A stretch of 64,000 nt of DNA, from positions 16,888-80,887 of the forward strand of contig JAHJIY010000040.1 of NCBI GenBank assembly GCA_018823175.1, written 5' to 3'. Below the pieces are notes generated by a model. That model searched no databases and was not told where the DNA came from. It saw only the letters and a program-made list of their open reading frames with translations. Positions 9,732 through 43,055 of the stretch are shown piece after piece (position 1 is the stretch's first letter; the number at the start of each line of letters is the position of its first letter). The stretch is from Pseudomonadota bacterium (lineage in GTDB: Bacteria; Desulfobacterota; Desulfobulbia; Desulfobulbales; JAHJIY01). The translations under genes were made by a program, and so were the position numbers.

Positions 9732-9759
9732 TTAAAAATTATAGCAGGGAGAAATAAAA

Positions 9760-10061: not shown

Positions 10062-10083
10062 CAACCAATAATCCTCATCAGAT

Positions 10084-11069: not shown

Positions 11070-11087
11070 ATAATAATTGAGCCGAAA

Positions 11088-15309: not shown

Positions 15310-15417
15310 TACCGCAAGGGCATAAGTTTCGTTCTGAGCCGAATAGCGGCTCAACTCAGCTTCATACCGCAAGGGCATAAGTTTCGTTCTGAGCCGACTA
15401 GCGGCTCAACTCAGCTT
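15310..15417. repeat. REP-like intergenic element, copies 2 and 3 in direct tandem (15310-15362, 15365-15417)
   Basis: Two 53-nt units TACCGCAAGGGCATAAGTTTCGTTCTGAGCCGA(A/C)TAGCGGCTCAACTCAGCTT differ at one base. They lie between convergent genes, and each has a 7-bp stem TGAGCCG/CGGCTCA. Confidence 0.85.
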
Positions 15418-15908
15418 TATAACGGCGGGGCCGGTGGCGTCGCCCCGGCAATCTGGAACTGCCAGCTGAATTCCTCACTCTGCAAATTGCCTTCGGAGTC
15501 AATCATCTCACCGGCGATCGTCGCGGTATAATAAAAATTGGCCGCCAAGGGTGAATCAGGGATGAACTTGCCCTTTCTCTCTTCCGGAATATAGGTGATA
15601 GTCCCGCTGACCGGCTGGACCCCGGAGGTATCATCCGTCAAGACGGCGGTGAGACTGGTCAACTGAACCCCATCCACCGCCTCGTTAAAGATCACATAGA
15701 TCCCTTCCAACTGCAGATCGGCGGCATAAACATCCTGCTCGTTTGAATCCGGATAATAAGAGACGATGGCCAGCGGTTCGCCGGACTCCGGATTATCGAT
15801 GGGTGGCGTGTCGTCATCAGGCAGGGTGGTGGAATGATCTCGACTTGAACCACCACAGCCACTGATTAACAAGGTTAAAATTACCACAATGATTGTCTTG
15901 AGTTTCAT
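15417..15908 (-). CDS. Lipoprotein with SbsA/Big_5-like Ig domain (cassette 1, family L)
   Basis: MKLKTIIVVILTLLISGC is a signal peptide plus lipobox. The rest follows the Big_5-like pattern (VSYYPDSNEQDV...IYVIFNEAVDG...GTITY...KGKFIP..PL..NFYYTATI..EMIDSEGN). Paralogues at 29701-30177 and 37824-38303. Confidence 0.8.
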   Translation of the reverse strand: MKLKTIIVVILTLLISGCGGSSRDHSTTLPDDDTPPIDNPESGEPLAIVSYYPDSNEQDVYAADLQLEGIYVIFNEAVDGVQLTSLTAVLTDDTSGVQPVSGTITYIPEERKGKFIPDSPLAANFYYTATIAGEMIDSEGNLQSEEFSWQFQIAGATPPAPPL

Positions 15909-16054: not shown

Positions 16055-16528
16055 TCAGCTATCTCTTTTGACCCGGACCAGAAATTCCGAGTGGGTGGCG
16101 GGAAGCGCGATATAAGCGGAGTCTTTCGCCATCGCAATCTTTTCTCCCTGCGCCTGATCAATCAATTCAAGCCAGCATCCGGCCGGCAATCCGGCCTGGT
16201 CCCAACTGATGGTTACGGCGGTTTCATTGGCGGTATCCACCACCAGTAGCCATTCCTCAAATTTAGGGCCGGTTCCCCGAATGTCCCGCCACAAGGAACC
16301 GCCGCCACCGACAAACCGGGCCTGCAGATCGCCGGAGAGCATGGCCGGCACATCGTAGCGGCCATCCTGTTGCCCGGTCGCGTCAAACTTGGCCCCGAAA
16401 GTGAGGCGGCTATTCGCCGCTCCGGCGCTGATCGCCAGATTGACCTCCCACTCCGCTCCGGCCTGAACCAGGGCGGGAAGGCACAATAACATTGCCAAGG
16501 TCGGAATTATCGTCTGCCATGTTTTCAT
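16055..16528 (-). CDS. 157-aa secreted protein of unknown function (cassette 1, family S)
   Basis: Signal peptide MKTWQTIIPTLAMLLCLPALVQA. Its ATG overlaps the stop of the upstream giant gene (ATGA, 16525-16528). Paralogues at 30283-30756 and, disrupted, at 38413-38886. Confidence 0.75.
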   Translation of the reverse strand: MKTWQTIIPTLAMLLCLPALVQAGAEWEVNLAISAGAANSRLTFGAKFDATGQQDGRYDVPAMLSGDLQARFVGGGGSLWRDIRGTGPKFEEWLLVVDTANETAVTISWDQAGLPAGCWLELIDQAQGEKIAMAKDSAYIALPATHSEFLVRVKRDS

Positions 16529-19500
16529 CTTGCTATCTCCGTAAAAGGGTTGGGAATAATCAATTTATAATCGGCATCGTCCTGGACCACATAGATCCAA
16601 TAAGCTCGCCAGGGGATAAGCAAGGCATCCGGCGCAGCGCCGGCGCTCTCAAAACTGTAAACCCCACCCCAATCATCACCCTGATATGTATAAATGGCGT
16701 TAATCAGGAAGTTGCCTGCACAGGCACCGGTCCAGGCCAGCGGGTCTTCATCATTGCGCCGGACCTTTACCTCACTCAATAAAACCTGTCCACCGTACGG
16801 ATTGGTGATAATATTCCAACCCGGCGTCAAATCCATGGTAAATTCAGGCTCGACATATTCGGGATATTCGTGCAAGTCCGGCAGAGAGGGCAGATCTTCC
16901 CGATGCATGAAATAACCCTGCCCCGGCACATTAAACCAATTGTTGTCATAGGGCGCAAAGTAACCGTTATTCCCGGCGGTGGAAATCCCGTTGGAAATCC
17001 AGCCAAAGATCCGGCTGCTGCCCAAAAGATCTTCCAGGCCGATTTCTTCAAGCAGCGCCTTGGCCAAGCCGACCATATTTGCCCCGTTCAATAATTCGAT
17101 CACCGGTCCCGGCAGATTCCCGCTGGCCAACAACGGATCAATTTCAGGATCATACTCCTCCTCGCCCCGGAGCTCGACCCGATATTCGTGATAACCGGCC
17201 GGTCCCAGCCTGGTATCGTAGGTACACTCCACCCTGGCGTTAAAATTCACTGGTTCCGGCCCGCAATCCATCCGGACGGGATAGCCATCCAGAATCAGCC
17301 AGACGCTGGTGGTCGTCGAGTAATACAGCTCAGCCATGAAATGGTATGTCACATCCAGACTCGGCATCCCGTCCACCAGATTATCAACGGCGTCAATGCC
17401 GTCGGTCCGCTCGAAATCAACCCGCAGAATACCGTCCCGATACAAACCAGGATCATAGGGATAGGCGTCCAGATCGCCGCAGACTCCGTCACCGTCGGCA
17501 TCATTTTCGGGATCATCGGGGCAAAGGTCATCGGCGTCAGGAATCCCGTCGTGATCACGGTCCGGGACCAGGGCAAAAGTCGCGCTCACCGTGCAATCAG
17601 CAACCATCGGACCGGTGATATAGTGACCAGCGCCGGACATCGCCCCGCCACAACCGGAGACCGATTGGATGGCATAGCCACTGTCCGGGGTAACGGCAAA
17701 GGAGTAGACCTCATTTTCATTAACGGTCTGCGGAGTAACAGGGTTAATCGCCCCGCCCGAACCAGCCGCCGGGGTCACCGTATATTGCGAACCACTGGGT
17801 GGCGAAACAGAATTTGCCGCAAAGGTTGCCGCCACCGCGCAATCGGCAATAATCGCATTGGTCGTATAAACCACTCCGCTCGTGCTGTCGGAGGGATTAC
17901 CGACGTAGCCGCCGGTACAGGTGCCGCCCACCGGGGTCACCAGATGATAGCCGTTACCGGGGATAATAGTGAAGCTGGGGGTGGCATTATGCAAGACAGT
18001 CTGCGTCCCAACCGGATTGATCGAGCCGCCGCCGCCGGCCGAAGCGGTCACCGTGTACTGATTATCAGCAAAGGTCGCATCGACTGAACAATCAGCGGTC
18101 ACCGCCGTGGTTGTATAAATCACGCCGGTGGTCGCATTGTTGGGATCACCGGTATAAGTGCCGCCGCAAGTGCCGCCCACCGGAGTAACCAGATGAAAGC
18201 CGGCAGCCGGAATGATCGTAAAGTCGGTGCTGGTGTTATAATCCACAATCTGGGCGTTTACCGGGCTGATCGAACCGCCCACCCCAACCGAGGGGGTAAC
18301 CGTGTACTGCTCGGGAGTAAAGGTGGCGGTGACCACGCAATCGCTGGAAAGGGCGTCGATGATGAACTGAATACCCATCTGATAACCACCACAGCCGGAG
18401 ATTGAATCAAGCTGATAATGAGGATTCGCGGCACCATACATATCGATGTAGCTCCCGTCCGGGTACTCTTCTTCACAATCGCCGGGGCAATCAATTCCCG
18501 GGGGGCTCAGTGAGGATATCGTCCCCCCACCCGCCGGGGAAATCACCACGGTGAGCTTGGGCCTGAACACCTCGAAGGCCCCCATATCGACAATGCCATC
18601 GATTATCCGGGGATGGCCGTTGAAATCCGTAAGAGTCAAGGCCGGCGCCCCATTAGCCCCGGTATTCAGGCAAGGTGAACCAACCTGCAGGTAGTAATAA
18701 TTGATCTGCGTAGGATCGCCGCCCATCAAAAGAGGATCCGCGCTGAGATTAGCGCCCGAGGTGAATGAGTCCGTATTGGTGATCACTTCCGAGGTGGTCA
18801 GATCGTTATTGTACAGGCGAACGGCGCTCCCGGTTCCATCGAGATCGGCATCACTATCCACATAGAGATCGGGAGACGGCGCTCCGACCGGGGCCAAAGC
18901 GACGATCAAGGCCTGCGGCGGCCCCCCGACGCCAATTTCATTGTCCCAGAAGATATTATTATAGATGTCGGCCGAGCTGGAATTGTAATATAAGGCGATT
19001 CCGCCGCCTCCCCCGACTAGGCCGGCGGTATTGCCATAGATGGTATTATTGGTAATCACTATATTGCCCAAACCGGCGGCAACCCCTACCCCGCCGGCCG
19101 CCCCGTTCTCGCTCAAATTGCCGGCGATCAGATTATTGGTAATCAGGGCATTGCCTGCATCGACCTTGATCCCGAGGCCGCCGCCGTTGGCCGCGCCTGG
19201 AATGACGCCGGAAGCAATATTGCCGATTAAATCGTTGCCATCAATTGTCACATCAGAGGTAACGGCATAGACCGCCAGACCGCCGCCGGAAGCGGGATCA
19301 TTATTGCCCGAATTGTCGGTGGTGGCCCGATTATTTTTGAAGGTATTATTATTCACCGTCACCGTGTTATTATCGGCCCAGACCATCAGACCGCCGCCGA
19401 AAATTCCGGCCTGCCCGCTGATGGAGTTATCCGCGAAATTACAATCGGAAACCGCAACCGTACCGTTGGCGGAACGCACATAGGCGCCACCGCCATCTGG

Positions 19501-22500
19501 ATCAAATCCGACTCCCGCGTTGGTGAGAAAATCAGTTGAGGTGACCGTCAGGTTACCGCCGGTTGACTGGAGCCAGGCGCCGCCGCCCATAGTGTCATTG
19601 CCTTCCGTCGCATTGCCGGAGAATTCGCAATCCGTCACCGCAACCGGCGCCGCGCCGGTGACCACGGCCAGACCGCCGCCTCCCTCGTGAACCACATCGT
19701 TATAACCGTTTTGAAAGGTGATAGCGGAGATGTCAATCGCCGCCGCCGAATCATCGGCCAGGCCGGTGGTGTCGATCCGCAATGGACAAAACGTACCATC
19801 GCCGTCCAGGATGGTAACGCCTGCTCCGGCTCCCTGAATAATCAGCCCATGATTATCGGAACCAAAACCGCCCTGCCCCGGACTATAGAAATTGGTAGCC
19901 GCTACCAGGAAGGTGTTGCCCGAAATGGTGATCGTCACCTCGGCCGGAACATAGCTGGCGGCAATCAGGGCGCTGGCCAGATCACAATCGCCATCTGAGC
20001 AATCACCGTCCGAAGCCGGATTGACCGTAAAAGCCGTGAGATAGGTAAAGGTCGCGTTCACCGTACAGTCGGCAATCACCGGATCAGTAGTATAGGTCTG
20101 ACCAACCAGATTACCGCCGCAGGTACCGCCGGTAGTATCGATCATATAACCGGGATCCGGGGTGAGGGTAAAGGCGATGGTCTGATTTTGGCCCACCAAC
20201 TGATCGGAAGATGGGCTGATGGCGCCGTCCGCGCCGGCCGACGGAGTGACCAGAAAGTCGATCTCCTGGGCCAGGCTGTCAGCAGACGCGGCATGAGTAA
20301 CGTCACCGGAGTAATTGGCGCTGATAGTGTGCGCCCCCGGGGTGAGCGTTGCGATATCGCAAGAAGCCTGATCAGCGACAATGGCTACTGCAGAGCAGAA
20401 GGTAGTGGCGCCTTCGCTAAAATCCACCGTCCCGGTGGCACCACTGGTGACCGTGGCGGTAAAGGTCAGGGAGTCCCCAACATGGGCCGGATTGGTCCCG
20501 GCGGTTAAGGCCAGGGTGGTGGACGAGATCGGCAACGGAATATCCTTGACCGCTGTTACCGTCCAGGCCTGGTTGGTGGTGTCCTCGGCAGTTACGGTAT
20601 AGGTCACCGGCGCGGTAAAATCCTGGACCGCGCCGGAAAGCGGGCTGACCGTGGCCAGGGCTGAAACGGTAATCGCCGGGATCAGGGCCGTCACATCGGC
20701 ATTGGTGTACAGATGAAAGGTCACGGTATGGCCGCCCCCGTCAATGATGGTCACCCCGACCTGCCCGGGCACGGTGAAATCGGTGATCTCTTTGGCGCTG
20801 CTCTGATTAATAGTAAAAGACAAGGTCCTGACCGTGGAGCGGTTGAGGTAGGCATCCTCGCAAATCACATAAATTTTATAGGTACCGGCCGGATAGCCGC
20901 TGGTCTCAAAAGAGCTGTTTCGCCAGTTCCCCGCCGTATTATAAGCGGTTTGATCACTATAATATGCCGGATTACCAAGACTGTTCAGACCAGCCGCCAC
21001 CTGGTCGTTTGACGGCGTCCCGGTCCCCGATGGTTCAACGACAAACCTGATGGTCCCCGCCTCATCATAGGACATACTGAAACTGGCGATGGTCCCGGCA
21101 AAAGTAACCGAGGTATTGCCGGACCAGTTTGGCGGAGTCTGATCCTGCATGGTGGTGAAGGTGGTGCTGACAATGTTGGAGACATTGCCGGTCGGGTCGA
21201 TCCCCACCGCATAGACAATATAATCGGTTGAGTGCATAAGGCCACTGATCGTCGGGGTATAGGTCGTTCCGAAACCGTGAGCAACGTGACTGTCAATGAT
21301 AATCTCGCCGCCATTGGCCGGAGCTGGGTCCGTGTTTAATAAGACCAGAACAAACAGATCGGCGCTCTCATCGGAGCTTATTTCAAGCACCGCTGACAAA
21401 TCAGCCGGGGTGACATTATCGATAGCCACGGTCGGCGGGGTCACGTCTCCTGGATTCACCCCGGCCTTGACCAGCACCTCGATATTTTTCAAGGCGCCCG
21501 ATGGCCGCAGCGCGGTCATCATCACCTCGGTATCAACAGGCGGCGAGGTCATCGTGACCTGGCCGGTACCATTATCAATGGCCAATATCCCCGGCGGCAG
21601 CGCAGACCAGGTCGCGCCATCGGTCAACGGCACTATAAAATCATGACGAACCATGGCCACGTTATCACTCAGGGCGGGGACAGACACATTCTCCAGAAGA
21701 AAAACCGGCATAACCCCGGCCAGGGAACTTTCCGCCGCAACGGAAGCCGGCACGGCATCAAAGGCCGCAAGTCTTGGGTAGAGCCCCGCCCGAGCCTGCC
21801 AAACTAGGCCACTCCAGGCGGCAGGGATCGCCCCGACTCCGGTCATCTGAGAGGTAGTTTGGGCGGTGACCCCGGCAAAGGTGACGCTGTCCTGATCAAA
21901 GCCGTACCAAACCCCGGCGGCCTGGCCGTCGAACAGGCAATCGGTCATGGTGATCTGACTGGTGGTATTAACCATTCCGACCACGGCCCCTAATAAACTC
22001 CGCCCACTATTGGCCGTGGTTACCCGGCCGGCGGCATAACAGTTACTGACAGCAAGAGTCAGATTGGTCCCGCCGTAATGATGGATCTGACCGAGCAGGC
22101 CACCAACGTATCGGGTATACCAAGCCTCGTTATTAGCGCTGGTCAGGGCCAGATCGCAGGTGGAAAAACAATCGCTGATGGTCAGAGAGGTATTTGAAGC
22201 GTTGATCAGGGAAAGTTGGCCGATCAATCCGCCAAGTTCACCGGTATTGGCGGCGGAATGAATCCGACCGGTAACGAAACAGCCGGTCAAACTGGAAGAC
22301 CCGGAAAATCCGTCAATCCCCCAGTAACCGACCAAACCGCCACCCATGGTAATCAACCCGTCCACATTGACCTCAACCAACCCAAGATTTTTAATAGTTA
22401 CCGGACCGCTGTTGGTATTAATCCAACCGAACAGGCCGAACTCCTCCCAGGTGGTAGCGTAATGGGTCATATTTTTAATGACGTGACCGTTACCGTCAAA

Positions 22501-22827
22501 GTTGCCCTTGAACCGATTGCTGTTGGTGCCGATCATCTGCCAGGTGCGGCCGGCCAGATCAAGGTCGGCGTCGAGCCGGATATATTTATTAACAAAACTG
22601 TTACCGGCGTTAACCAGCGAAGCCAGTCCCGCCAGCTCCGCCTCGGTATCGATCACGTATGGGTCGACCGCTCCGCCCTGCCCCAAACCGGTCTGGGTAG
22701 CGTACCACGTCGTTTCCGGCACTCCGGCATCCTGCCAGCTGGCCGCATCCGCTCTCCGTACCGGCATGACAACCAGCAGCAAGATTGCCATGATCAGTCC
22801 CACCAAAAATCCTGTTCGTTTCAGCAT
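16525..22827 (-). CDS. Giant secreted surface protein 1 (~2100 aa): GLUG-motif region, Ig-like domains, parallel beta-helix, 5 InlB-B-repeat-like domains, TSP3-like Ca-binding repeats, shared CTD
   Basis: The track ORF starts at TTG 22845. ATG 22827 is preferred (GAGGAGG 9 nt upstream) and gives MLKRTGFLVGLIMAILLLVVMPVRRADA. GLUG-type GGLVG/GGLIG/GGLLG; NNTFKNN../GGGL beta-helix turns ending DMGAFE; repeated YTVT..GGSI.P....GGTCGG...DC.V.ATF; DRDHDGIPDADDLCPDDPENDADGDGVCGD. Confidence 0.9.
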   Translation of the reverse strand: MLKRTGFLVGLIMAILLLVVMPVRRADAASWQDAGVPETTWYATQTGLGQGGAVDPYVIDTEAELAGLASLVNAGNSFVNKYIRLDADLDLAGRTWQMIGTNSNRFKGNFDGNGHVIKNMTHYATTWEEFGLFGWINTNSGPVTIKNLGLVEVNVDGLITMGGGLVGYWGIDGFSGSSSLTGCFVTGRIHSAANTGELGGLIGQLSLINASNTSLTISDCFSTCDLALTSANNEAWYTRYVGGLLGQIHHYGGTNLTLAVSNCYAAGRVTTANSGRSLLGAVVGMVNTTSQITMTDCLFDGQAAGVWYGFDQDSVTFAGVTAQTTSQMTGVGAIPAAWSGLVWQARAGLYPRLAAFDAVPASVAAESSLAGVMPVFLLENVSVPALSDNVAMVRHDFIVPLTDGATWSALPPGILAIDNGTGQVTMTSPPVDTEVMMTALRPSGALKNIEVLVKAGVNPGDVTPPTVAIDNVTPADLSAVLEISSDESADLFVLVLLNTDPAPANGGEIIIDSHVAHGFGTTYTPTISGLMHSTDYIVYAVGIDPTGNVSNIVSTTFTTMQDQTPPNWSGNTSVTFAGTIASFSMSYDEAGTIRFVVEPSGTGTPSNDQVAAGLNSLGNPAYYSDQTAYNTAGNWRNSSFETSGYPAGTYKIYVICEDAYLNRSTVRTLSFTINQSSAKEITDFTVPGQVGVTIIDGGGHTVTFHLYTNADVTALIPAITVSALATVSPLSGAVQDFTAPVTYTVTAEDTTNQAWTVTAVKDIPLPISSTTLALTAGTNPAHVGDSLTFTATVTSGATGTVDFSEGATTFCSAVAIVADQASCDIATLTPGAHTISANYSGDVTHAASADSLAQEIDFLVTPSAGADGAISPSSDQLVGQNQTIAFTLTPDPGYMIDTTGGTCGGNLVGQTYTTDPVIADCTVNATFTYLTAFTVNPASDGDCSDGDCDLASALIAASYVPAEVTITISGNTFLVAATNFYSPGQGGFGSDNHGLIIQGAGAGVTILDGDGTFCPLRIDTTGLADDSAAAIDISAITFQNGYNDVVHEGGGGLAVVTGAAPVAVTDCEFSGNATEGNDTMGGGAWLQSTGGNLTVTSTDFLTNAGVGFDPDGGGAYVRSANGTVAVSDCNFADNSISGQAGIFGGGLMVWADNNTVTVNNNTFKNNRATTDNSGNNDPASGGGLAVYAVTSDVTIDGNDLIGNIASGVIPGAANGGGLGIKVDAGNALITNNLIAGNLSENGAAGGVGVAAGLGNIVITNNTIYGNTAGLVGGGGGIALYYNSSSADIYNNIFWDNEIGVGGPPQALIVALAPVGAPSPDLYVDSDADLDGTGSAVRLYNNDLTTSEVITNTDSFTSGANLSADPLLMGGDPTQINYYYLQVGSPCLNTGANGAPALTLTDFNGHPRIIDGIVDMGAFEVFRPKLTVVISPAGGGTISSLSPPGIDCPGDCEEEYPDGSYIDMYGAANPHYQLDSISGCGGYQMGIQFIIDALSSDCVVTATFTPEQYTVTPSVGVGGSISPVNAQIVDYNTSTDFTIIPAAGFHLVTPVGGTCGGTYTGDPNNATTGVIYTTTAVTADCSVDATFADNQYTVTASAGGGGSINPVGTQTVLHNATPSFTIIPGNGYHLVTPVGGTCTGGYVGNPSDSTSGVVYTTNAIIADCAVAATFAANSVSPPSGSQYTVTPAAGSGGAINPVTPQTVNENEVYSFAVTPDSGYAIQSVSGCGGAMSGAGHYITGPMVADCTVSATFALVPDRDHDGIPDADDLCPDDPENDADGDGVCGDLDAYPYDPGLYRDGILRVDFERTDGIDAVDNLVDGMPSLDVTYHFMAELYYSTTTSVWLILDGYPVRMDCGPEPVNFNARVECTYDTRLGPAGYHEYRVELRGEEEYDPEIDPLLASGNLPGPVIELLNGANMVGLAKALLEEIGLEDLLGSSRIFGWISNGISTAGNNGYFAPYDNNWFNVPGQGYFMHREDLPSLPDLHEYPEYVEPEFTMDLTPGWNIITNPYGGQVLLSEVKVRRNDEDPLAWTGACAGNFLINAIYTYQGDDWGGVYSFESAGAAPDALLIPWRAYWIYVVQDDADYKLIIPNPFTEIAR
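16528..17448 (-). other. Shared ~300-aa C-terminal domain (CTD), copy in giant 1
   Basis: The last 307 aa align along their whole length with the C-termini of the ORFs ending at 30753, 38888 and 49184. Shared blocks: [77 protein letters not shown]. Confidence 0.85.
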
Positions 22828-22942
22828 CGATCCAATCCTCCTCAACCTTCTTATTCAGCCAATTATTTCATTTTCCCGATCAATATCGGCTTTCTCTAAT
22901 AACTTTCGCTAAAACATTTACCTTTAATACCCAGCAAATAAG

Positions 22943-22958: not shown

Positions 22959-23311
22959 CCGAACACCAATACCAAATTAACGCAATGATAACAAAGAGTT
23001 ACATGAAACAATCCACACCAACAAAAGGAGACAAAGGGTCGCAACCTCTGGCCGAAAGCCAGTCAAGATATTATAAATAATTAAATTATTACAACAAGTT
23101 ACCAGTAAAAGACAAAAGTAGTGGGCTGGACAAAAGTTACGGGGGCATTATGCCGAAATAAAGAGTGGATCAACTTTAAACTTTCCAGATCTGCCAATGG
23201 TTGAAGCCGCCGGTCATTTTGGATCTTGCACCCATCCATGTGTTTGGCTATTATGGCGAAAATAAAGTTCATCCAACTAATCGGAAAATTCACCGAGGAC
23301 AGGCCAGGCCC

Positions 23312-26860
<3,549 letters not shown>

Positions 26861-29700: not shown

Positions 29701-30177
29701 TCATAAGGGCGGCGGCGGCGAAATCAGGCCAACCTGAAACTGCCAGCTGAATTCCTTGTTCTGAACATTTCCATCGGCATCGATAATCTCGCCGGAAATC
29801 GTTGCCGTATAGTAATAACTGGCAAACAGCGGGGCGTCGGGGACGAACTTGCCTTTTCTTTCTTCCGCAATATAGCTGATGGTACCGGTGACCGACTGGA
29901 CCCCGGAGGTATCGTCAGTCAGAGTGGCGGTAAGGCTCGTAAGGGTGGCGCCATCCACCGCCTCGTTAAAGATCACATAAATTCCGTTATCCTGCAGATC
30001 GGAGGCATAGACCGCCTGCTCGTTTGAGTCTGGATAATAAGAAACCACCGATAAAGAAGGGACCGGGTCAGGGTTTGTGCCATTATCATCCGGAACAACG
30101 TCGTCATACTTGCTGCCACCATCACAGCCGACGAATAATAAGGCCAAAATTGCGACCACGATCATCTTAATTTTCAT
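29701..30177 (-). CDS. Lipoprotein with SbsA/Big_5-like Ig domain (cassette 2, family L)
   Basis: ATG 30177 gives MKIKMIVVAILALLFVGC (the track ORF extends to 30222). About 60-70 percent identical to the copies at 15417 and 37824. RBS GACAGGAG is conserved with copy 3. Confidence 0.8.
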   Translation of the reverse strand: MKIKMIVVAILALLFVGCDGGSKYDDVVPDDNGTNPDPVPSLSVVSYYPDSNEQAVYASDLQDNGIYVIFNEAVDGATLTSLTATLTDDTSGVQSVTGTISYIAEERKGKFVPDAPLFASYYYTATISGEIIDADGNVQNKEFSWQFQVGLISPPPPL

Positions 30178-30282: not shown

Positions 30283-30756
30283 TCAGTTATCTCTTTTTAC
30301 CCGAACCAGAAATTCCGAGTGTAAAGCCGATGGCACAATATAAATTGAAACGTCCGCCATCGCCACCTTTTCGCCCTGCTCCTGGTCAATCAACTCAAGC
30401 CAACACCCGGCCGGTAGTCCGGCCTGGTCCCAGCTGATGGTCACCGCCGTTTCAGAGGAGGTATCCACCACCAGCCGCCACTCCTCAAGATTATGACCGG
30501 TCCCCCTAATATCACGCCACAAGGAACCGCCGCCGTCGATAAAACGGGCCTGCAGGTCGCCGGAGAGCATGGCCGGCACATCATAACGACCATCTTTGTC
30601 AGCGGTGGCGTCAAACTTGGCCCCGAATGAGACCCGACTCTTTGCCGAACCGGCGCTGATCGCCAGATTAACCTCCCACTCCGGCCCGGCCTGGGCCAGG
30701 GAAGGGAGGAACAGTAATATTGCTAAGACCGAAAATATTGTCTGTCGGATTTTCAT
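30283..30756 (-). CDS. 157-aa secreted protein of unknown function (cassette 2, family S)
   Basis: MKIRQTIFSVLAILLFLPSLAQA is the signal peptide. ATGA overlap with the giant gene stop (30753-30756). About 75 percent identical to the copy at 16055-16528. Confidence 0.75.
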   Translation of the reverse strand: MKIRQTIFSVLAILLFLPSLAQAGPEWEVNLAISAGSAKSRVSFGAKFDATADKDGRYDVPAMLSGDLQARFIDGGGSLWRDIRGTGHNLEEWRLVVDTSSETAVTISWDQAGLPAGCWLELIDQEQGEKVAMADVSIYIVPSALHSEFLVRVKRDN

Positions 30757-33700
30757 CTTATTGTCTCCATAAAAGGGTTCGGAATTATCAATTTATACTC
30801 GGCATTATCCTGAACCACATAGACCCAGTAAGCCAGCCAGGGAACAAGTTTGGCCCCATGGTCACCGTCGGCGCTCTCAAACCCGTAAATCGAACCCCAG
30901 TCTTCACCCTGATAGAAGTAGATCGCATTGAAGAGGAGATTGTCGCCACAGGCCGCAAGCCAAGGAATCGGCGCTTCATCATTAACCTGAACCGAGACCT
31001 GACTCAAGAGGACCTGGCCGCCGTACGGATTGGCAATCAGATTCCAGCCCGGAGTAAGCGTCATGACGAACTCAGGTTCGCTGAGGTCAGGATAGCTGGA
31101 AAAATCCGGCAAAGAGGCCTGATCCTGCCTCCTCATGAAATAGCCCCGGCCCGGCGTATTTTCGCAGGAGCCGGCGCAAGGCTCGTAATAACCGTTGTTA
31201 CTGATTCCGGAAAGGCCGGTGGAGATCCAGGTGTAGATCGAATCGCTGCCCAAAAGATCAGCCAGACCGGTTTCGCCGAAGGCCCGGGCCAGTCCCACCA
31301 TGTTGGCGCCGTTTAACAGTTCGACCTGCGGCCCCGGATACTGGTCACTCACCAGCAGTGGTTCTTCGACCGGATCATAATCGATACCGGTTCGGATCTC
31401 GGCATGGTAGTTATGGTTGGCGCTTGGTCCCAGCTGCCGCTCAACGGTGCAGGTCACCGGCAGTGAAAAGTCAACCGGCTCCGGTCCGCAATCCATGACC
31501 ACCGGATAACCGTCGAGAATCAGCCAGACACTGCCGGCTGCCGGTGCAAAGAAGTTAGCGGTGAACCGGTAGGTTATGTCCGATTTGGGAATACCCTCAA
31601 TCAGATTATTGTTCGCATTGCCGTCGTCCGTCCTGCTGATCATGAGCCAGTCGTCTCCGTTGCTGTCTCCGTCGGGAGGGTCGGTCGGGGTGGGAGTATC
31701 ACCATCGCTGTTGGCCAGGACAGTAAAGCTCTGCGCAATATTCGAGGCGGCATAGTCGGCGTCACCCGCCTGGGCGGCGGTGATTGAACAGATACCGGCC
31801 CCGACGATACTGACCGTGCTGCCGCTCACCGTACAGACCGTGGTGGTGGTTGAGGCGAAGCTGACTGCCAGACCGGAGGTAGCGGTGGCGCTCACCGTAA
31901 AGTCCGGGTCGCCGTAAGTCTTGTCGGCCAGGGCAGTAAAGGTGATGGTCTGGTTCTTCTTATTGACGCTGAAACTCCGGGTCACATCCGGCGCTATGTT
32001 GTAGTCGGCGTCACCCGCCTGGGAGGCGGTAATGGAGCAGGCGCCGGGCGCCACCAGATGAACGGTGCTGCCACTCATCGTGCAGACCCCGGTGGTGGTC
32101 GAAACAAAACTTACGGTGAGCCCGGAGGAAGCCGAGGCGCCGACAGTAAAGTCCGCATCGCCAAAGGTCTTATCAGCAAGGGGATTAAAGGTGATGGTCT
32201 GATCACCCTTGTTGATCGTCAGGAGGGCGTCGATATGAGAAATATCGTAGCCCATCTGATCCGACCAGAGATCGGGGAGATAGCTGCCGATGGCGAGGGC
32301 TCCGTTATACGGAGCGGCCAGGTTGAAAAGGTGGCCCGAGGAGTCGGCCCCGGCTACGGAATAGGAGGGATTGGTGAGGGCATTGGTATAGGGCACGCCG
32401 TCATAGCCCTTGACGACGTTGTCCGCAGTCACCGTCAGCGGCGTGAGGAAGCCACGCAGCAGCGGATAGGTGGAGCCGTCGTAGATGCGCCAGGTGGCGC
32501 CGCTGCCGCCGCTGTCGTCGATGCTCCAGCCGGCACCGCTGAAGGTGGCGAGGCTCTGCATCTCGGCGGTGGTGAGGCCGGTGCCGGCGGCGCTGGTCGC
32601 CTGGCCTGATGTCTGGGTGTCCCAGAAGCTGGTGTTGACGATGCCGGTGCTGATCCCCACCAGCCCGCCGATTCCGCTGACGATTCCGCTGACGATTCCG
32701 GTGGCGTAGGCGTTGCTGATGGTGCCCGCGCCGTAGTTGCCCCCCACCAGCCCGCCGACATAGTTGGAACCGTTGACGCTGCCGGTGGCGTAGGCGTCGG
32801 TGATGGTGCCGGTGCTGGACCCCGCCAGCCCGCCGACATAGTTGGTGCCGCTGACGTTGTCGGTGGCGTAACTGGTGTTGATCGTACCGCCGTAGTTTCC
32901 ACCCACCAGCCCGCCGACCTCGGAGCCGCTAGCTGTGACGCTGCCGGTGGCATAGCTGGTGCTGATCGTACCGTTGGTGGCACGTCCCACCAGGCCGCCG
33001 ACCATGGTTTGCCCTGTGATCGCGGTGGCGACGTAGCTGTTGCTGATGCTGCCGGCGTAGTTCCACCCCGCCAGCCCGCCGACATAGTTGGTGCCGCTGA
33101 CGCTGACGCCCACCAGCCTGATGTCGCCCAGGCTGCCCTCGTTCACGCCGAATAGGCCGACATTGTCGCTCCCCACGCGGTTGATGGTCAGGTCGGTGAT
33201 GGTGTGATTCACCCCGTCAAAACTGCCCGTAAAGGGGGTGGATAAGTTACCCACCGGCGCGAAGCCCGCGCCGGCGTTCCAGGTGGCGGTGGCGGTGGCG
33301 TCGATGTCGTTAGCCAGTTGATAGGCGTTGCCCGGCATGCCGCTGCTACCCATGCCCTGCAGGCCGTAGACGTCGGTGAGCTGGTACGGGGTGGCGCCGC
33401 TGCCGTTGCCTGACAGGGCGCGGATGAAGGTGCCGCCGGAAATGCCGAAGTCGTAGACGTCGAAGGCGGGCAGGCCGGCGGCGATCTGGTTCCAGGTGCC
33501 GCCCTGCAGGTCGAATACCGCGCTGCCGGTGCCGCTGACCGGGGCCGTGTCGGTGATGGCGCCGCTGGTGTTGATGTTGAGCGTGCCGCTGGTCCAGGTG
33601 ATGGCGTTGGTCAACGCGATGTCGCCCGCCGCGCTGCCGGGGGTGCTGATGCTGCGGGCGGTGATCAGGTCGTAGCCCTGTTGGGTTGAATAAAGGCCCT

Positions 33701-35477
33701 TGCCCAGGGTGGCGGTGTAGCCGTCGGTGGCGGAACTGGAGAGGGTCAGGGTATCGGCGACGCTGCCAAACACCTTGCCCGCGTCGTAGCTGCCGGCGAT
33801 GGTGTAGGCGCCGATGTCGGTCAGGGCCGTGCCGCTGCCGTCATAGACAGGCTGCACCTCAAGCGGGGTGAGGAACGAACGCAGCAGCGGAGAGGTGGAG
33901 CCGTCGTAGATGCGCCACACGGCGCCGCTGCCGCCGCTGTCGTCGATGCTCCAGCCGGCGCCGCTGAAGGTGGCGAGGCTCTGCATCTCGGCGGTGGTCT
34001 TGCCGGTGCCACCGGCGCTGGTCGCCTGGCCGCTGGTCTCGGTGTCCCAAAAGCTGTTGCTGGTGGTGCCGGTGCTGGATCCCGCCAGCCCGCCAGCCGC
34101 ACCGCTGCCGCTGACGCTGCCCGTGGCGTAGCTGTTGCTGATGTTGCCGCCGAAGTTCTCCCCCACCAGCCCGCCGACACTGCTCCCGCCGCTGACGCTG
34201 CCCGTGGCGTAGCTGTTGCTAATAGTGACCTGGCTGCCAAGCCCCACCAGGCCGCCGACATAATCACCGCTACCTGTGACGCTGCCGGTGGCGAAACTGT
34301 TGCTGATCGTGCCGATGCCGACTGAAAGATTGAATAAACCCGCCAGCCCACCGACATAATCACCGCTACCTGTGACGCTGCCGGTGGCGTAACTGTTGCT
34401 GATCGTGCCGGTGCCGTCCCCCACCAGGCCGCCGACATAATTACCGCTACCTGTGACGTTGCCGGTGGCGTAGCTGTTGCTGATCGTGCTGCGACTCATG
34501 GCATTTACCAGGCCGCCGGCCCCGTAGGGGGAGGTCACGTCGCCCGTGGCGTAGGCGTTGCTGATCGTGACGCCCCCCCTTGCCCACCCCAGCAGGCTGC
34601 CGGCAGAGAGGCCGGTCACGCTGCCGCCCACCAGCCCGACATTGCGCAGCGTAGAGTTCTCCACGCGGCTGAACATGCCGATCTGGCTGATGCTCGGGCG
34701 GTTGATGTAGAGATTGTCGATGGTGTGGCCGAGGCCGTCGAAGCCGCCCGTGAATATGGCGGGGTTATAGCCCACCGGGGTGAAGCCCGCGCCGCTGTTC
34801 CAGCCGGAGGTGGCGCTGGCATCAATGTCCGCCCCGAGCGCATAGTGGCGGGCAAGGTTGCCGCTCATGCCCTGCAGATCCGTTCCGGTCATGCTGCCCT
34901 CCGAGCCAAGGCTGGTGAGCACCGTGTAGGCCGTGCCGCCGATGGTCAAAAAGCCCGAGCCCGAGCGCGGTGTGGCGCCGTCCGCCTCGAAGAAGTCCAC
35001 CCGGCCGGTGAAGCCGCTGCCGTTCAGCGCGACATTGACCTTGCCGCTGCCTGGCTCAAGATCCAGCGCGGCGGTGTCGTTCGCCGTCATCACGGCGTTG
35101 ATGTTGATGTCGTTGGTGGCGGTCAGGGTCAGGGTGTTGGCGCTCCACGAGACAGACTCGTTGATCATTATATCACCCGCCTCAGCGCCACCGTCACTGC
35201 TGCTGCCGGTAGTGATCTCCACCAGACCGGTGGAGAGACGTGACTCTACTTCGATGGCCGCCACGGTCGAACCACTGCCACTCGGCGTCCAGACATCCGG
35301 GTTGCCGCCGGACCAGGAGCCGGTCGTGCTCGCAGCGCCGATCGTGACGTCATAATAGGCCTGGGCAGGGGTCGCCAGCCCCCCACACGCCATGATCATA
35401 CCAATAATAACCGCCCATAGGGACAGATGGTTGGCTGATTTTATCCCTGCTTTTTTATTCTTTGCCGATTGTCTCAT
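30753..35477 (-). CDS. Giant secreted surface protein 2 (1574 aa): two GLUG-repeat modules with MBG-like (YDG) domains, two Ig-like domains, degenerate acidic linker, shared CTD
   Basis: Signal peptide ...LWAVIIGMIMACGGLATPAQA. Many SNSYATGSVTGSG.YVGGLVG (GLUG) units. FWDT.TSGQATSAGGTG.TTAEMQSLATFSGAGWSIDDSGGSGA.WRIYDGST occurs twice. GDQTITF..LADKTFGD.DFTV Ig-like unit x2. The CTD ends [14 protein letters not shown]. Confidence 0.9.
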   Translation of the reverse strand: MRQSAKNKKAGIKSANHLSLWAVIIGMIMACGGLATPAQAYYDVTIGAASTTGSWSGGNPDVWTPSGSGSTVAAIEVESRLSTGLVEITTGSSSDGGAEAGDIMINESVSWSANTLTLTATNDININAVMTANDTAALDLEPGSGKVNVALNGSGFTGRVDFFEADGATPRSGSGFLTIGGTAYTVLTSLGSEGSMTGTDLQGMSGNLARHYALGADIDASATSGWNSGAGFTPVGYNPAIFTGGFDGLGHTIDNLYINRPSISQIGMFSRVENSTLRNVGLVGGSVTGLSAGSLLGWARGGVTISNAYATGDVTSPYGAGGLVNAMSRSTISNSYATGNVTGSGNYVGGLVGDGTGTISNSYATGSVTGSGDYVGGLAGLFNLSVGIGTISNSFATGSVTGSGDYVGGLVGLGSQVTISNSYATGSVSGGSSVGGLVGENFGGNISNSYATGSVSGSGAAGGLAGSSTGTTSNSFWDTETSGQATSAGGTGKTTAEMQSLATFSGAGWSIDDSGGSGAVWRIYDGSTSPLLRSFLTPLEVQPVYDGSGTALTDIGAYTIAGSYDAGKVFGSVADTLTLSSSATDGYTATLGKGLYSTQQGYDLITARSISTPGSAAGDIALTNAITWTSGTLNINTSGAITDTAPVSGTGSAVFDLQGGTWNQIAAGLPAFDVYDFGISGGTFIRALSGNGSGATPYQLTDVYGLQGMGSSGMPGNAYQLANDIDATATATWNAGAGFAPVGNLSTPFTGSFDGVNHTITDLTINRVGSDNVGLFGVNEGSLGDIRLVGVSVSGTNYVGGLAGWNYAGSISNSYVATAITGQTMVGGLVGRATNGTISTSYATGSVTASGSEVGGLVGGNYGGTINTSYATDNVSGTNYVGGLAGSSTGTITDAYATGSVNGSNYVGGLVGGNYGAGTISNAYATGIVSGIVSGIGGLVGISTGIVNTSFWDTQTSGQATSAAGTGLTTAEMQSLATFSGAGWSIDDSGGSGATWRIYDGSTYPLLRGFLTPLTVTADNVVKGYDGVPYTNALTNPSYSVAGADSSGHLFNLAAPYNGALAIGSYLPDLWSDQMGYDISHIDALLTINKGDQTITFNPLADKTFGDADFTVGASASSGLTVSFVSTTTGVCTMSGSTVHLVAPGACSITASQAGDADYNIAPDVTRSFSVNKKNQTITFTALADKTYGDPDFTVSATATSGLAVSFASTTTTVCTVSGSTVSIVGAGICSITAAQAGDADYAASNIAQSFTVLANSDGDTPTPTDPPDGDSNGDDWLMISRTDDGNANNNLIEGIPKSDITYRFTANFFAPAAGSVWLILDGYPVVMDCGPEPVDFSLPVTCTVERQLGPSANHNYHAEIRTGIDYDPVEEPLLVSDQYPGPQVELLNGANMVGLARAFGETGLADLLGSDSIYTWISTGLSGISNNGYYEPCAGSCENTPGRGYFMRRQDQASLPDFSSYPDLSEPEFVMTLTPGWNLIANPYGGQVLLSQVSVQVNDEAPIPWLAACGDNLLFNAIYFYQGEDWGSIYGFESADGDHGAKLVPWLAYWVYVVQDNAEYKLIIPNPFMETIR
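30756..31649 (-). other. Shared CTD, copy in giant 2
   Basis: The last 298 aa are homologous to the other three CTDs. The preceding TSP3-like repeats are reduced to DGDTPTPTDPPDGDSNGDD. Confidence 0.85.
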
Positions 35478-37823: not shown

Positions 37824-38303
37824 TCATAAGGGCGGCGGCGGGGAGACCAGGGCAATCTGGAACTGCCAGCTGAATTCCTTGTTCTGGGTATTACCATCGG
37901 CATCGATAATCTCGCCGGAAATGGTCGCCGTATAGTAATAACTGGCAAACAATGGGGCATCGGGAACGAACTTGCCCTTTCTTTCTTCCTCAATATAACT
38001 AATGGTTCCGTTAACCGGCTGCCCCCCGGCTGGTTCATCATCAATCAGGGTGGCGGTAAGACTCGTAAGAGTGGCGCCGTCCACCGCCTCGTTGAAGATT
38101 ACATAAATCCCAGTGGTCTGAATATCATCGGCATAAACCGGCTGCACATCTGAGTCCGGATAGTAGGAAACGACCTCCAGAGATGGGACCGGATCAGTGG
38201 TGGTGTCATTATCATCAGTAATGACATCGTCATACTTGCTGCCACCATTGCAGCCAAAGAACAATAAGGCCAGAATTACGACCACGATCACCTTAACTTT
38301 CAT
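37824..38303 (-). CDS. Lipoprotein with SbsA/Big_5-like Ig domain (cassette 3, family L)
   Basis: ATG 38303 gives MKVKVIVVVILALLFFGC (the track ORF extends to 38345). Closest to copy 2; even the 3' flank GAAAATTCTCATAAGGGCGGCGGCGG is shared with 29691-29716. Confidence 0.8.
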   Translation of the reverse strand: MKVKVIVVVILALLFFGCNGGSKYDDVITDDNDTTTDPVPSLEVVSYYPDSDVQPVYADDIQTTGIYVIFNEAVDGATLTSLTATLIDDEPAGGQPVNGTISYIEEERKGKFVPDAPLFASYYYTATISGEIIDADGNTQNKEFSWQFQIALVSPPPPL

Positions 38304-38412: not shown

Positions 38413-38886
38413 TTAGTTATCTCTTTTTACCCGGACCAGAAATTCCGAGTGTAAAGCCGATGGCACCATATAAATTGAAACGTCCGCCATCGCCGTCTTT
38501 TCTTTCCGCTCCTGATCAATCAACTCAAACCAGCAACCGGCCGGTAGTCCGGCCTGGTCCCAGCTGATGGTGACCGCCGTTTCGGAGGCGGTATCCACCA
38601 ACCAGTATCCACTCCTCAAGATTATGACCGGTTCCGCGGATATCCCGCCACAAAAAACCACCTCCGTCGACAAAGCGGGCCTGCAGATCGCCGGAGAGCA
38701 TGGCCGGCACATCATAGCGGCCATCATTGTCACCGGTGGCGTCGAACCTGGCCCCGAATGAGACCCGACTCTTTGCCGAACCGGCGCTGATCACCAGATT
38801 TACCTCCCACTCCGCCCCGGCCTGGGTCAGGGAAAGAAGGAATAGTAATATTGCCAAGACCGAAATATCGTCTGCCGGATTTTCAT
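38413..38886 (-). pseudogene. Family S (157-aa secreted protein) gene, cassette 3, disrupted by two compensating single-base frameshifts
   Basis: Same 474-nt length and the same ATG context as copy 2. Relative to copy 2 there is a 1-nt deletion in an A/T run (38863-38865) and a 1-nt insertion at 38600/38601. The ATG frame stops after MKIRQTIFRSWQYYYSFFP. The track splits the gene into 38525-38857 and 38413-38733. Confidence 0.75.
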
Positions 38887-41779: not shown

Positions 41780-41792
41780 GGGGACTCCTCTC

Positions 41793-43055
41793 TTAATTCG
41801 GTAAGCCATTATTCATCTCCTGCCAGTTCGCACAATCATCGGTACTGACAAACACCCCCGCCTCGGTCCCGGCGTAGAGCTTACCGGTGGCATCAATGGC
41901 CAGGGAAACGACGTTCAGGTTGGTCAGATTGGTGTTGGCGCAGGCATCCCAGGTATCGCCGGAATCGCTGCTGGTGAAGATCCCGCTGCCGTAAGTCGCG
42001 GCATAGAGCTTCGTCGAATCGCCCGGCAGTATGACCAGCTCCTTGACCCGCAAGTTGGTCGGTTGGGTCGAGGCCCCGGTCCAGTTGGCGCCGGAGTCGG
42101 TGCTCTTGTAGATGCCGGCGCTGTCCAGCCCGCTATAGATGGTCGTGGGCGTGGCCGGGTCGATGACGATGCTGCCGGCGCTGATCGCCAGGGTGGCGAA
42201 TGACACCGGACCGACCAGTTGCGAGGCGTACCCGGTGGTGGTTTCCGTGGCGACCAGATAAAGGTCGTAACCGGTGCCGACGGCGAGGCCGGTCACCGCA
42301 AAGGTTTTCAGGGTCTTGCCGGTCATGGCGCCGGTGCCCGCCGCCGCTACCGTCACGCTACCGTAGGAGACGCCGGCAATCACCTGCGCGGGGGTAGGCG
42401 GCGTCGCGCCATAGGGGACGACCAGCCAATAGCCGCTACCATTCACCGGGCTGGTGGCGCTCAGGGTGGTGGTTGTGGTGGTGGTGCCGGCAACACCGCC
42501 GGGCAAAAGCGCAAAAGAACCAAAATACTGTCCGCCGCGAACCAACCGCACGTAGTAGTTGAACGTCTTATTGCCGGCGTTGGTGAAGCCGTAAGCAAAA
42601 CCGACGGCCCACGCAGCGGCTGGACTCGGAACATACGACGAACCGGACCAGAAGCCCGACGCAACTGTGTTAGGGAAAGCCGTCGTGTCGATGGTCGGGG
42701 AGCTACCCGTCTTGACCAGGGTCCGGAGTTCCACAAAGCTCGGCAACCGCCAGTCGGAGTAACCCTTGTAGTTGGCGGTGCTTCGGGTTGCGGCTAAATC
42801 CATGGCGCCCGCCCAGCTGTAGGACACGGACACACCGGTGGCACACCCAGCCCCGCTCAATCCGGCGGTGCACTGGTCCCACATCAAGCCGGTGGAGGTA
42901 TCGGTCACCGTGCCGTCGCCGTTATCGACAAAAGGCGGGTCGGCATGGGCGACGCCCACCCCGAGGGTGACAAGGGCAGCCAGCGTGACCAGGGCAAGCC
43001 CCAGAACGGGGTGGATTTTTATCGTGGTGGTGAGTCGATTTGGCAACGCTTTCAT
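41793..43055 (-). CDS. Secreted protein: DUF1566 (Lcl C-terminal/C-type-lectin-like) domain + Ig-like region + BNR/Asp-box repeats
   Basis: 420 aa; GAAGGAG RBS; signal peptide ...LVTLGVGVAHA. DNGDGTVTDTSTGLMWDQ and YSDWRLPSFVELRTL are DUF1566 hallmarks. Asp-boxes STDSGANW, SSDSGDTW, STDDCANW. The last ~130 aa are paralogous to the C-terminus of the 1866-aa protein. Confidence 0.85.
   Translation of the reverse strand: MKALPNRLTTTIKIHPVLGLALVTLAALVTLGVGVAHADPPFVDNGDGTVTDTSTGLMWDQCTAGLSGAGCATGVSVSYSWAGAMDLAATRSTANYKGYSDWRLPSFVELRTLVKTGSSPTIDTTAFPNTVASGFWSGSSYVPSPAAAWAVGFAYGFTNAGNKTFNYYVRLVRGGQYFGSFALLPGGVAGTTTTTTTLSATSPVNGSGYWLVVPYGATPPTPAQVIAGVSYGSVTVAAAGTGAMTGKTLKTFAVTGLAVGTGYDLYLVATETTTGYASQLVGPVSFATLAISAGSIVIDPATPTTIYSGLDSAGIYKSTDSGANWTGASTQPTNLRVKELVILPGDSTKLYAATYGSGIFTSSDSGDTWDACANTNLTNLNVVSLAIDATGKLYAGTEAGVFVSTDDCANWQEMNNGLPN

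Follow-up and report, generated by a model that had tools for sequence, protein, structure and literature searches.

We identified a family of C-terminal domains (CTDs), represented by the ends of four giant proteins in the window (the whole 64-kb stretch of DNA analysed), whose genes are directly followed in 30 of 37 genomic loci by a gene for a secreted protein of 157 residues (p157) and/or a lipoprotein with an Ig-like domain; in other phyla, a p157-like domain stands in the same chain as one half of the CTD. The partners, i.e., this synteny and the p157 fusion, are the new part of the result. To our knowledge, little has been established on how Desulfobacterota and Nitrospirota keep giant adhesins on the diderm surface outside the well-studied T1SS with LapG, T5SS and T9SS. 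The finding supplies a testable three-gene unit, and Desulfuromusa kysingii DSM 7343 is a cultured host that carries the CTD, in an adhesin encoded at 7583-10876 of locus L034, and the lipoprotein, encoded at 10881-12125. The features of the window are listed in Table 1.

Table 1. Positions in the window of the giant genes, their C-terminal domains and linkers, and the partner genes.
Feature	Position	Strand	Basis
Giant g1, 2106 aa: signal peptide, DUF5018, Big_3_5, beta-helix, TSP3-like linker, CTD	16525..22845	-	
Giant g2, 1574-aa ORF: six Glug repeats, then CTD	30753..35477	-	
Giant g3, 973-aa ORF, likely start 41779: Big_9 repeats, TSP3-like linker, CTD	38888..41809	-	
Giant g4, 3107-aa ORF: ~124-aa tandem repeats, Calx-beta, TSP3-like linker, CTD	49184..58507	-	
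CTD copy 1, C-terminus of g1, 307 aa	16528..17448	-	Four-copy alignment; AlphaFold model, pLDDT 94.7
CTD copy 2, C-terminus of g2, 298 aa	30756..31649	-	Four-copy alignment
CTD copy 3, C-terminus of g3, 304 aa	38891..39802	-	Alignment; identical to database protein P0008
CTD copy 4, C-terminus of g4, 303 aa	49187..50095	-	Alignment; without partner genes downstream
CTD1 N-terminal block, residues 1-105, six beta strands, RxDGGxDxxNL motif	17134..17448	-	Predicted secondary structure
CTD1 C-terminal "GWNLIS" block, residues 115-300	16549..17106	-	Profile matches; model strands E123-299
TSP3-like Ca-binding linker before CTD1	17449..17583	-	DxDxDG positions and sequences
TSP3-like linker equivalents in g3 and g4	39803-39922 (g3), 50096-50215 (g4)		DxDxDG positions and sequences
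p157a, 157-aa secreted partner	16055..16528	-	ATG overlaps g1 stop codon (ATGA)
p157b, 157-aa secreted partner	30283..30756	-	ATG overlaps g2 stop codon (ATGA)
p157c, same gene with two frameshifts (pseudogene or assembly error)	38413..38886	-	
Lipoprotein a, 163 aa: lipobox LISGC, acidic/Pro linker, Big_5 Ig-like domain	15417..15908	-	
Lipoprotein b (Big_5), likely start 30177	29701..30177	-	
Lipoprotein c (Big_5), likely start 38303	37824..38303	-	

All four CTD stretches lie at the extreme 3′ ends of their ORFs. An earlier note, made from the letters of this DNA alone, had described them as C-termini that align end to end on otherwise different giants, and our comparison agrees: the copies of 298-307 aa are 58-62% identical to CTD1, with a mean column identity of 75%, and the invariant blocks listed in that note, down to the terminal YKL.IPNP, are found in the alignment. 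In BLAST, similarity between giants is restricted to the last 306-499 residues, where E-values reach 1e-107 to 1e-161; chance similarity is therefore excluded. CTD3 and CTD4 share 91% DNA identity over their last 300 nt, which points to gene conversion among the copies.

The CTD had been said to resemble no known family, and this holds for the databases searched. None of the four copies matches a Pfam or NCBIfam family at E ≤ 10, a PDB sequence-profile search gives no match at the same threshold, Foldseek with the CTD model returns no specific structural match in PDB or BFVD, and a full-text literature search for the GWNLIS motif returned nothing. Word-indexed searches gave only 7 and 10 relatives, so that an exhaustive search of cluster representatives was needed; the family then comprises 883 representatives, 113 of them at E ≤ 1e-30, and in the source databases its members are all named "hypothetical". 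The strict terminal position reported for the window extends across the family: among the 142 matches that reach the end of the CTD profile, 139 end 0-4 residues from the protein C-terminus and all end within 9.

AlphaFold predicts the CTD as an all-beta, non-barrel domain. The model of CTD1 (pLDDT 94.7, pTM 0.91) consists of short strands of 3-8 residues, with two short helices in the C-terminal half. In the N-terminal block the strands run over residues 7-14, 34-41, 48-53, 56-59, 73-80, and 88-94; we infer the fold class of both blocks, that of the N-terminal one being probably Ig-like. The C-terminal half of 185 residues bears the motif PGWNLISNPY, from which we coined the name GWNLIS domain. 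This is the part common to the CTD and to T9SS-type cargo, and the profile matches in loci L039-L074 cover it alone.

N-terminal signal peptides are recognisable in the sequences of the giants, and the CTD passengers are adhesin-type repeats (fn3, He_PIG, PKD, Big_9, cadherin-like, TSP3). Pfam finds only passenger families on 44 CTD family members, including TSP3_bac in 4 and TSP_3 in 2. The thrombospondin-type-3-like repeats noted ahead of the CTD in three of the four giants are present in g1, g3, and g4, directly N-terminal to the domain, and absent in g2. Their motifs (DxDxDG and CPDDP.ND.DGDGVC) mark these linkers as putative Ca-binding repeats of this type; the window giants give no match to PF18884 or PF02412 at E ≤ 0.01.

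Downstream of g1, g2, and g3 lie a p157 gene and a lipoprotein gene, neither of which follows g4. p157 has its own signal peptide, and Pfam finds no match on 22 p157-like sequences. A PDB profile search with p157 yields marginal matches only, to gasdermin (E = 0.14) and RemA (E = 0.24); a RemA-like nature was rejected, the alignment spanning 57 residues of generic strand pattern. The second partner is, as judged from its motifs, a Big_5 Ig-like lipoprotein: PF13205 is matched with 43-45 bits, above its gathering cut-off of 23.6 (E-values of 1e-11 to 1e-10), and the alignment places the lipoboxes LISGC, FVGC, and FFGC in the window copies. HHalign finds no homology among the N- and C-terminal halves of the CTD, p157, and the short and long lipoproteins. 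Within the window, the partners are more alike (75-90% identity for p157, 64-82% for the lipoprotein) than the CTDs (56-72%), and since the pattern of similarity of the partners differs from that of the CTDs, strict cognate co-evolution is not seen.

Whether these partners always follow the CTD was a question raised by the earlier note. They do not: p157 is found in 14 and the Big_5 lipoprotein in 22 of the 37 loci, so the pairing is not obligatory, although one or both are present in the 30 loci given above. In most of the others there is a different lipoprotein, with a CGGGG linker and an fn3 or Ig domain, and neither partner is present in three or four loci. When all ORF families were compared over 38 loci (Desulfuromonadales, Nitrospirota, Balneolales, and Gemmatimonadota), p157 and the Big_5 lipoprotein were the only families found repeatedly in different lineages. 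The reverse search, starting from p157, finds a CTD end directly upstream in 6 of 8 metagenome loci, and locus L088 repeats the full triad of CTD, p157, and lipoprotein. A distant CTD subfamily keeps the pairing as well, with a p157-like+fn3 protein downstream. On the other hand, the Desulfuromusa clade has a 414-aa lipoprotein and lacks p157; this lipoprotein hides no p157 domain, given that HHalign found no homology between them.

In 24 proteins the GWNLIS domain is followed, after a linker of 2-76 aa, by a p157-like domain in one chain. A tail of ~100 aa comes after the latter in 21 of the 24, and all four tails scanned match Por_Secre_tail or FlgD_ig. Such T9SS-type cargo occurs in Armatimonadota, Ignavibacteria, Balneolales, and Chitinophagales. 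Split and fused p157 are homologous by HHalign (probability 99.3%, E = 8e-21); thus, the CTD and p157 represent two halves of one module, split at the linker in the window. If the module is defined as a GWNLIS half (PGWN..NPYGG ... DWG ... PW.GYW) with a p157-like domain after it, whether in one chain or encoded by the next gene, it is found with an intact p157 in g1 and g2 and with the frameshifted copy in g3, while g4 is without p157; elsewhere it is present in 14/37 genome loci, 6/8 metagenome loci, and the 24 fused proteins.

These observations suggest, with about even chances in our estimation, that CTD, p157, and lipoprotein form a non-covalent docking unit for Sec-exported adhesins. The CTD would serve as a docking module, compact and all-beta, at that end of the adhesin-like giants which is nearer the cell, and its GWNLIS half would work with the separately exported p157; in T9SS-type cargo the two form consecutive domains of a single chain, and in the window they are split at the linker and translationally coupled. 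The neighbouring Ig-domain lipoprotein, with its long flexible linker, would provide the membrane anchor, and the passenger would be held on the envelope non-covalently through CTD, p157, and lipoprotein, replacing the covalent A-LPS anchor that the T9SS forms after tail cleavage. A partner-binding or anchoring role, preferred in the earlier note over an adhesive one, gains support from the conserved downstream genes and from the fused p157 neighbour in other phyla, with physical binding, its stoichiometry, the location of the lipoprotein, and the route across the outer membrane all remaining putative. Likewise, a contact between CTD and p157 is putative, adjacency of domains in a fused chain being distinct from proof of contact.

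It appears unlikely that the CTD is instead an export or sorting signal for outer-membrane translocation, with p157 and the lipoprotein as transient periplasmic accessory, pilot or chaperone factors rather than a permanent anchor. Such a role would fit the extreme C-terminal position, as in other sorting domains, the placement of the module directly ahead of T9SS tails in other phyla, and the translational coupling, which suits a dedicated chaperone; furthermore, the giants carry Sec signals and no known outer-membrane route for them is visible within the 64-kb window. However, among the ORF families of the 38 loci, transport components such as a beta-barrel or an ATPase do not recur beside the CTD genes, a folded domain of 300 aa is long for a signal, and both partners are small and Ig-like or beta-rich. 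Moreover, fused cargo has the module together with a bona fide T9SS tail, so that the module itself is not that signal.

We regard as rather improbable a ligand-binding, lectin-like or adhesive terminal domain accompanied by co-expressed surface or matrix subunits that have no specific docking role. One would expect an adhesive tip to lie far from the cell and not fixed at a C-terminus beside T9SS tails, and the fission/fusion of p157 and the start/stop overlap would be left unexplained, even if the all-beta prediction is shared with many carbohydrate-binding modules and the conserved aromatics W150, W211, W239, W260, and Y283/W284 could line a sugar-binding site. The structural matches that would favour a lectin, a multi-modular xanthanase as best PDB hit in Foldseek (E = 6e-4) and a BFVD entry annotated as "putative hemin binding protein" (query TM-score 0.39), belong to a set that is weak (query TM-score 0.2-0.39) and generic. 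The structural hits are generic Ig folds, as expected if the CTD were no more than a conserved structural spacer built of generic beta-rich domains, which recombination has spread between paralogous adhesin genes while the downstream genes hitch-hike, and the gene conversion between CTD3 and CTD4 goes in the same direction. Nonetheless, we hold this to be a very poor prospect: the domain is conserved in different phyla, keeps its strict terminal position and has invariant motifs that are not those of Ig domains (e.g., PGWN..NPYGG, DWG), the partner synteny does not depend on the local genomic surroundings, and the fusion with p157 exists.

Several known systems resemble the proposed docking unit in part. 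T9SS sorting domains (Por_Secre_tail PF18962/TIGR04183 and FlgD_ig-like tails), like the CTD, are predicted to be beta-rich and form the extreme C-terminus of large surface proteins exported through Sec; in FCB (Fibrobacterota-Chlorobiota-Bacteroidota) and Armatimonadota cargo they come directly after homologues of the GWNLIS half and of p157. However, the CTD is three times larger, none of the four copies matches PF18962, TIGR04183 or TIGR04131 at E ≤ 10, while the fused relatives, used as positive control, do; in the fused proteins the module is separate from the tail and N-terminal to it, and the window proteins have no T9SS tail. Genes of the T9SS machinery (SprA/Sov, PorV, PorU, PorK-N) are likewise absent from the 64-kb window, and the organisms with the split form probably lack a T9SS. 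It is possible, although we consider it doubtful, that CTD, p157, and Ig-domain lipoprotein represent a previously unrecognised T9SS-independent surface-display system of Desulfobacterota, Nitrospirota, and relatives, sharing its origin by gene fission/fusion with a conserved, unannotated "pre-tail" module of T9SS cargo, and in which the lipidated partner replaces covalent A-LPS attachment. If so, the fused module of T9SS cargo would be a functional anchoring element too, and not a spacer. The two unannotated families, the GWNLIS-containing CTD and p157, could enter domain databases, where they would annotate the region ahead of the sorting tail in the T9SS-type cargo found here.

The logic proposed for the docking unit is that of dockerin and cohesin in the cellulosome, in which varied passengers carry a C-terminal module that binds non-covalently to a cell-tethered partner domain. 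There is no homology: CTD, p157, and lipoprotein do not match dockerin PF00404 or cohesin PF00963 (the lipoprotein matches Big_5 only), and the CTD lacks the ~70-aa EF-hand-like dockerin repeat. In addition, the partner here is no multi-cohesin scaffoldin but a small stand-alone protein whose gene lies beside each cargo gene, and the CTD occurs in hosts with an envelope of the Gram-negative type. Type V autotransporter beta-domains are, like the CTD, ~300 aa long and located at the extreme C-terminus of giant Sec-dependent diderm adhesins. Yet, identity with such a 12-strand barrel with a terminal aromatic residue (PF03797) was rejected on the basis of the short strands, the two helices of the C-terminal half, the absence of a Pfam match, and the final residues of the four CTDs (R, R, Q, and E). 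Finally, in many loci the partner lipoprotein begins with C-GGGGGG and continues into a disordered linker and then a beta-rich domain. Poly-Gly linkers are known from surface lipoproteins of the Neisseria TbpB/fHbp type, which are not homologous to the partners, whose own surface exposure is putative. A Slam/TbpB-like nature of the CTD itself was dismissed, Foldseek having returned no TbpB, fHbp or hemophilin folds.

The true start of g4 is uncertain because the first 300 aa of the ORF are reverse-transcriptase-like; this match, together with a nearby Lcl_C protein, raised the idea of a diversity-generating retroelement (DGR), which was abandoned as no template/variable repeat pair was found. 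As for p157c, the split gene calls are identical in the deposited assembly, and with the frame restored the protein is 90% identical to p157b.

The long ORFs g1 to g4 encode giant adhesin-like proteins that are unlike each other in domain content except for a common C-terminal domain (CTD), and BLAST matches among them are limited to the C-terminal 306–499 residues (E = 1e-107 to 1e-161). The CTDs consist of the last 298–307 residues and, as claimed in an earlier note, align end to end, with 58–62% identity to that of g1 and a mean column identity of 75%; pairwise values range from 56% (g2/g4) to 72% (g3/g4). All the invariant motif blocks described in that note are found in the alignment. The Ca-binding repeats which it placed before the domain in three of the four proteins are present too: a thrombospondin type 3 (TSP3)-like linker (DxDxDG / CPDDP.ND.DGDGVC) lies directly N-terminal to the CTD in g1, g3 and g4, and not in g2. 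Between g3 and g4, DNA identity over the final 300 nt of the CTD is 91%, far higher than in the remaining CTD, which suggests recent gene conversion between these paralogues.

Coordinates of the giant genes and of other features in the window
Feature	Position	Strand	Description
g1	16525-22845	minus	long ORF; upstream of CTD: DUF5018, Big_3_5, beta-helix
g2	30753-35477	minus	long ORF; upstream of CTD: six Glug repeats
g3	38888-41809	minus	long ORF; upstream of CTD: Big_9
g4	49184-58507	minus	long ORF; upstream of CTD: Calx-beta, plus about fourteen tandem repeats of 124 aa
g3 CTD, last 300 nt	38904-39203		
g4 CTD, last 300 nt	49197-49496		
g4 tandem repeats	51700-56900	minus	units of 372 nt, 60-77% identity
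g4 RT-like segment	57600-58507	minus	first ~300 aa of the ORF
p157c	38413-38886	minus	p157 copy beside g3
Lcl_C/BNR protein	41793-43055	minus	420 aa
DUF11 giant	43170-48770	minus	1866 aa
Regulatory genes	23201-29596	plus	hybrid sensor kinase (dCache, HAMP, Hpt), response-regulator/kinase, sigma-54 activator
Pentapeptide protein	358-3078	minus	906 aa

The domain had been described as fitting no known family. Indeed, Pfam-A and NCBIfam searches at E ≤ 10 gave no match for any of the four CTDs, a profile search against all PDB sequences returned only noise, and both the CTD and p157, the 157-aa secreted protein encoded next to it, are absent from Pfam 2025, NCBIfam 20 and PDB. Scanning 44 members of the CTD family one by one against Pfam revealed no family spanning the common C-terminus, and only passenger domains were matched (fn3, He_PIG, PKD, Big_9, TSP3, cadherin-like, CHB_HEX_C, and Calx-beta). 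Public records call the family members “hypothetical protein”, and in the literature searched in full text no paper mentions the GWNLIS motif of the domain. Only 7 CTD relatives came from word-indexed searching of 5.8 billion proteins; exhaustive HMMER searching of 1.84 billion cluster representatives yielded 883 at E ≤ 0.001, 113 of them at E ≤ 1e-30. The strict location at the extreme C-terminus was upheld: among the matches listed, the profile end was reached in 142, of which 139 stop 0–4 residues and the remaining 3 stop 5–9 residues from the end of the protein, behind passengers of roughly 50 to 2,800 residues. The 37 loci with a full-length CTD, taken from one genome per species, belong to Desulfuromonadales (including the cultured Desulfuromusa kysingii DSM 7343), Nitrospirota/Thermodesulfovibrionia, Balneolales, Gemmatimonadota and unclassified Proteobacteria. 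Several genomes carry multiple copies, such as the four in the window and three in MAG mb.199.

In the window, g1 and g2 are directly followed by p157, which has a predicted cleavable signal peptide and whose ATG overlaps the stop codon of the giant (ATGA). Next comes a gene for a lipoprotein of 163–173 aa, in which a lipobox and an acidic/Pro-rich linker precede a Big_5 Ig-like domain (E about 1e-11). The lipoprotein is intact also beside g3, and p157c is frameshifted twice, within the signal peptide and between EEWILV and VDTAS; the deposited assembly has the same split gene calls. With its frame restored p157c is 90% identical to p157b, the copy beside g2; either the gene is a pseudogene or the assembly is wrong here. 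No partner genes were found downstream of g4, which is followed by an AT-rich spacer of 413 nt with a 10-bp GC hairpin.

When all ORFs of the 37 genome loci and of the window (38 sources in total) were clustered, no more than three families turned up in unrelated lineages: the CTD itself, the Big_5 lipoprotein in 21 loci, and p157 in 13. Other recurring families owe their recurrence to local synteny inside the Desulfuromusa clade. Where 700 nt or more lie 3′ of the CTD (37 loci), one or both partners are encoded downstream in 30, usually adjoining or overlapping the CTD stop codon. The two genes recur, but they do not always follow (p157 in 14/37, Big_5 lipoprotein in 22/37). Most loci having neither encode instead a secreted protein of Ig repeats or a different lipoprotein, which has a C-GGGGG linker and an Ig-like or fn3 domain. 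In the Desulfuromusa clade, which lacks p157, the lipoprotein is 414 aa long, ends in Big_5 and is flanked by housekeeping genes. In the reverse direction, a metagenome scan with the p157 motif DGRYDVPA gave eight loci: six have a CTD end directly upstream, and the other two are pairs of p157 and an fn3-lipoprotein, with no CTD within the ~270 nt present. The full triad was seen again at locus L088. In a distant subfamily (P0137 and P0129), where the match at the C-terminus is limited to the C-terminal half of the CTD, the following gene encodes a p157-like domain plus fn3, and L077 holds a second such pair. Multihaem cytochrome genes (Paired_CXXCH, MtrC/MtrF-like) flank these loci (L076 1039–7835; L077 2701–13889), and through this subfamily the module may be tied to loci for extracellular electron transfer.

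An iterative search starting from p157 recovered fused forms. In these weaker CTD matches, from Armatimonadota (Fimbriimonadales), Ignavibacteria, Balneolales, Chitinophagales and Rhodothermia, a p157-like domain directly follows, in the same polypeptide, the part matching CTD residues 120–300, after a linker of 2–76 residues (median about 17; n = 24). Stand-alone and fused p157 domains align in HHalign over 140 columns (probability 99.3%, E = 8e-21), and the split point is the linker: fused LKIPYG-linker-EWKVDI corresponds to LIIPNPxxxx-stop plus signal-AEWEVNL. From this homology and the position of the split, we infer that the C-terminal half of the CTD and p157 are parts of one ancestral module, represented in the window by adjacent translationally coupled genes. 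Such Rosetta-stone evidence points to a functional and probably physical link between CTD and p157. A tail of 99–109 residues follows the p157-like domain in 21 of the 24 fused proteins; all four tails scanned match FlgD_ig, one matches Por_Secre_tail/TIGR04183 strongly and two weakly. In three fused proteins from Fimbriimonas-type MAGs (L042, L044, and L049) the p157-like domain is the extreme C-terminus, with 2–3 residues after it and no FlgD_ig or type IX secretion (T9SS) tail.

AlphaFold modelling of the CTD reached a pLDDT of 66 with 11 sequences and of 94.7 (pTM 0.91) with 44. The model is all-beta, with six strands in an N-terminal block (residues 7–94) and a second block (residues 123–299) that also has two short helices. 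Since the strands are only 3–8 residues long, the CTD is no outer-membrane barrel; secondary structure and generic Ig-like matches are consistent with two sandwich-type domains.

We regard the CTD as a putative module for anchoring or docking at the C-terminus, served by dedicated partners. Its proposed working arrangement resembles that of dockerin–cohesin pairs and of T9SS sorting tails, but judged by the family searches and the model the CTD is neither a dockerin nor a T9SS tail nor an autotransporter domain. In the likeliest reading, with about even chances, the unit of CTD, p157 and lipoprotein keeps the giants on the envelope: these would be exported by Sec, the CTD would pair with co-produced p157, and the Ig-domain lipoprotein would tether the complex to a membrane, thereby retaining the adhesin-like passenger. 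For the T9SS-type relatives with fused domains, covalent attachment of this same module would follow cleavage of the tail. Against strict cognate pairing are the lack of partners at g4, the broken p157c, the clades without p157, and the conservation of p157 and the lipoprotein, which is higher than that of the CTDs and follows a different similarity pattern; the partners may act in trans. More tentatively, the module could mark a surface-display system of its own, to which the module of T9SS cargo would be related through fission or fusion. A role in sorting or as a chaperone, within an export route not yet known, is unlikely, a lectin-like binding domain is more doubtful still, and a mere spacer is quite improbable.

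Other features accompany these genes. The Lcl_C/BNR protein and the DUF11 giant, encoded between CTD genes, share a second C-terminal module (BNR/Sortilin-like; last 126 residues 67% identical, both ending NNGLPN), of which the DUF11 giant has another, internal copy (49% identity). The N-terminus of the 3107-aa g4 ORF is reverse-transcriptase-like (RVT_1, E = 2.7e-8), its best PDB relative being Cas6-RT-Cas1 (2.7e-9) and the next best group II intron-like RTs, with YMDE in place of the expected YxDD. No DGR-type template/variable repeat was found in connection with it. This part continues in frame, without a stop, into the giant surface protein (start of the ORF putative; weak signal-like segment near residue 345), and the two are merged also in public gene calls (P0009, 3102 aa). 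The regulatory genes lying between the g1 unit and the g2 unit may control the adhesin genes. Finally, the pentapeptide protein consists almost entirely of such repeats (Pfam Pentapeptide, E = 1e-124).
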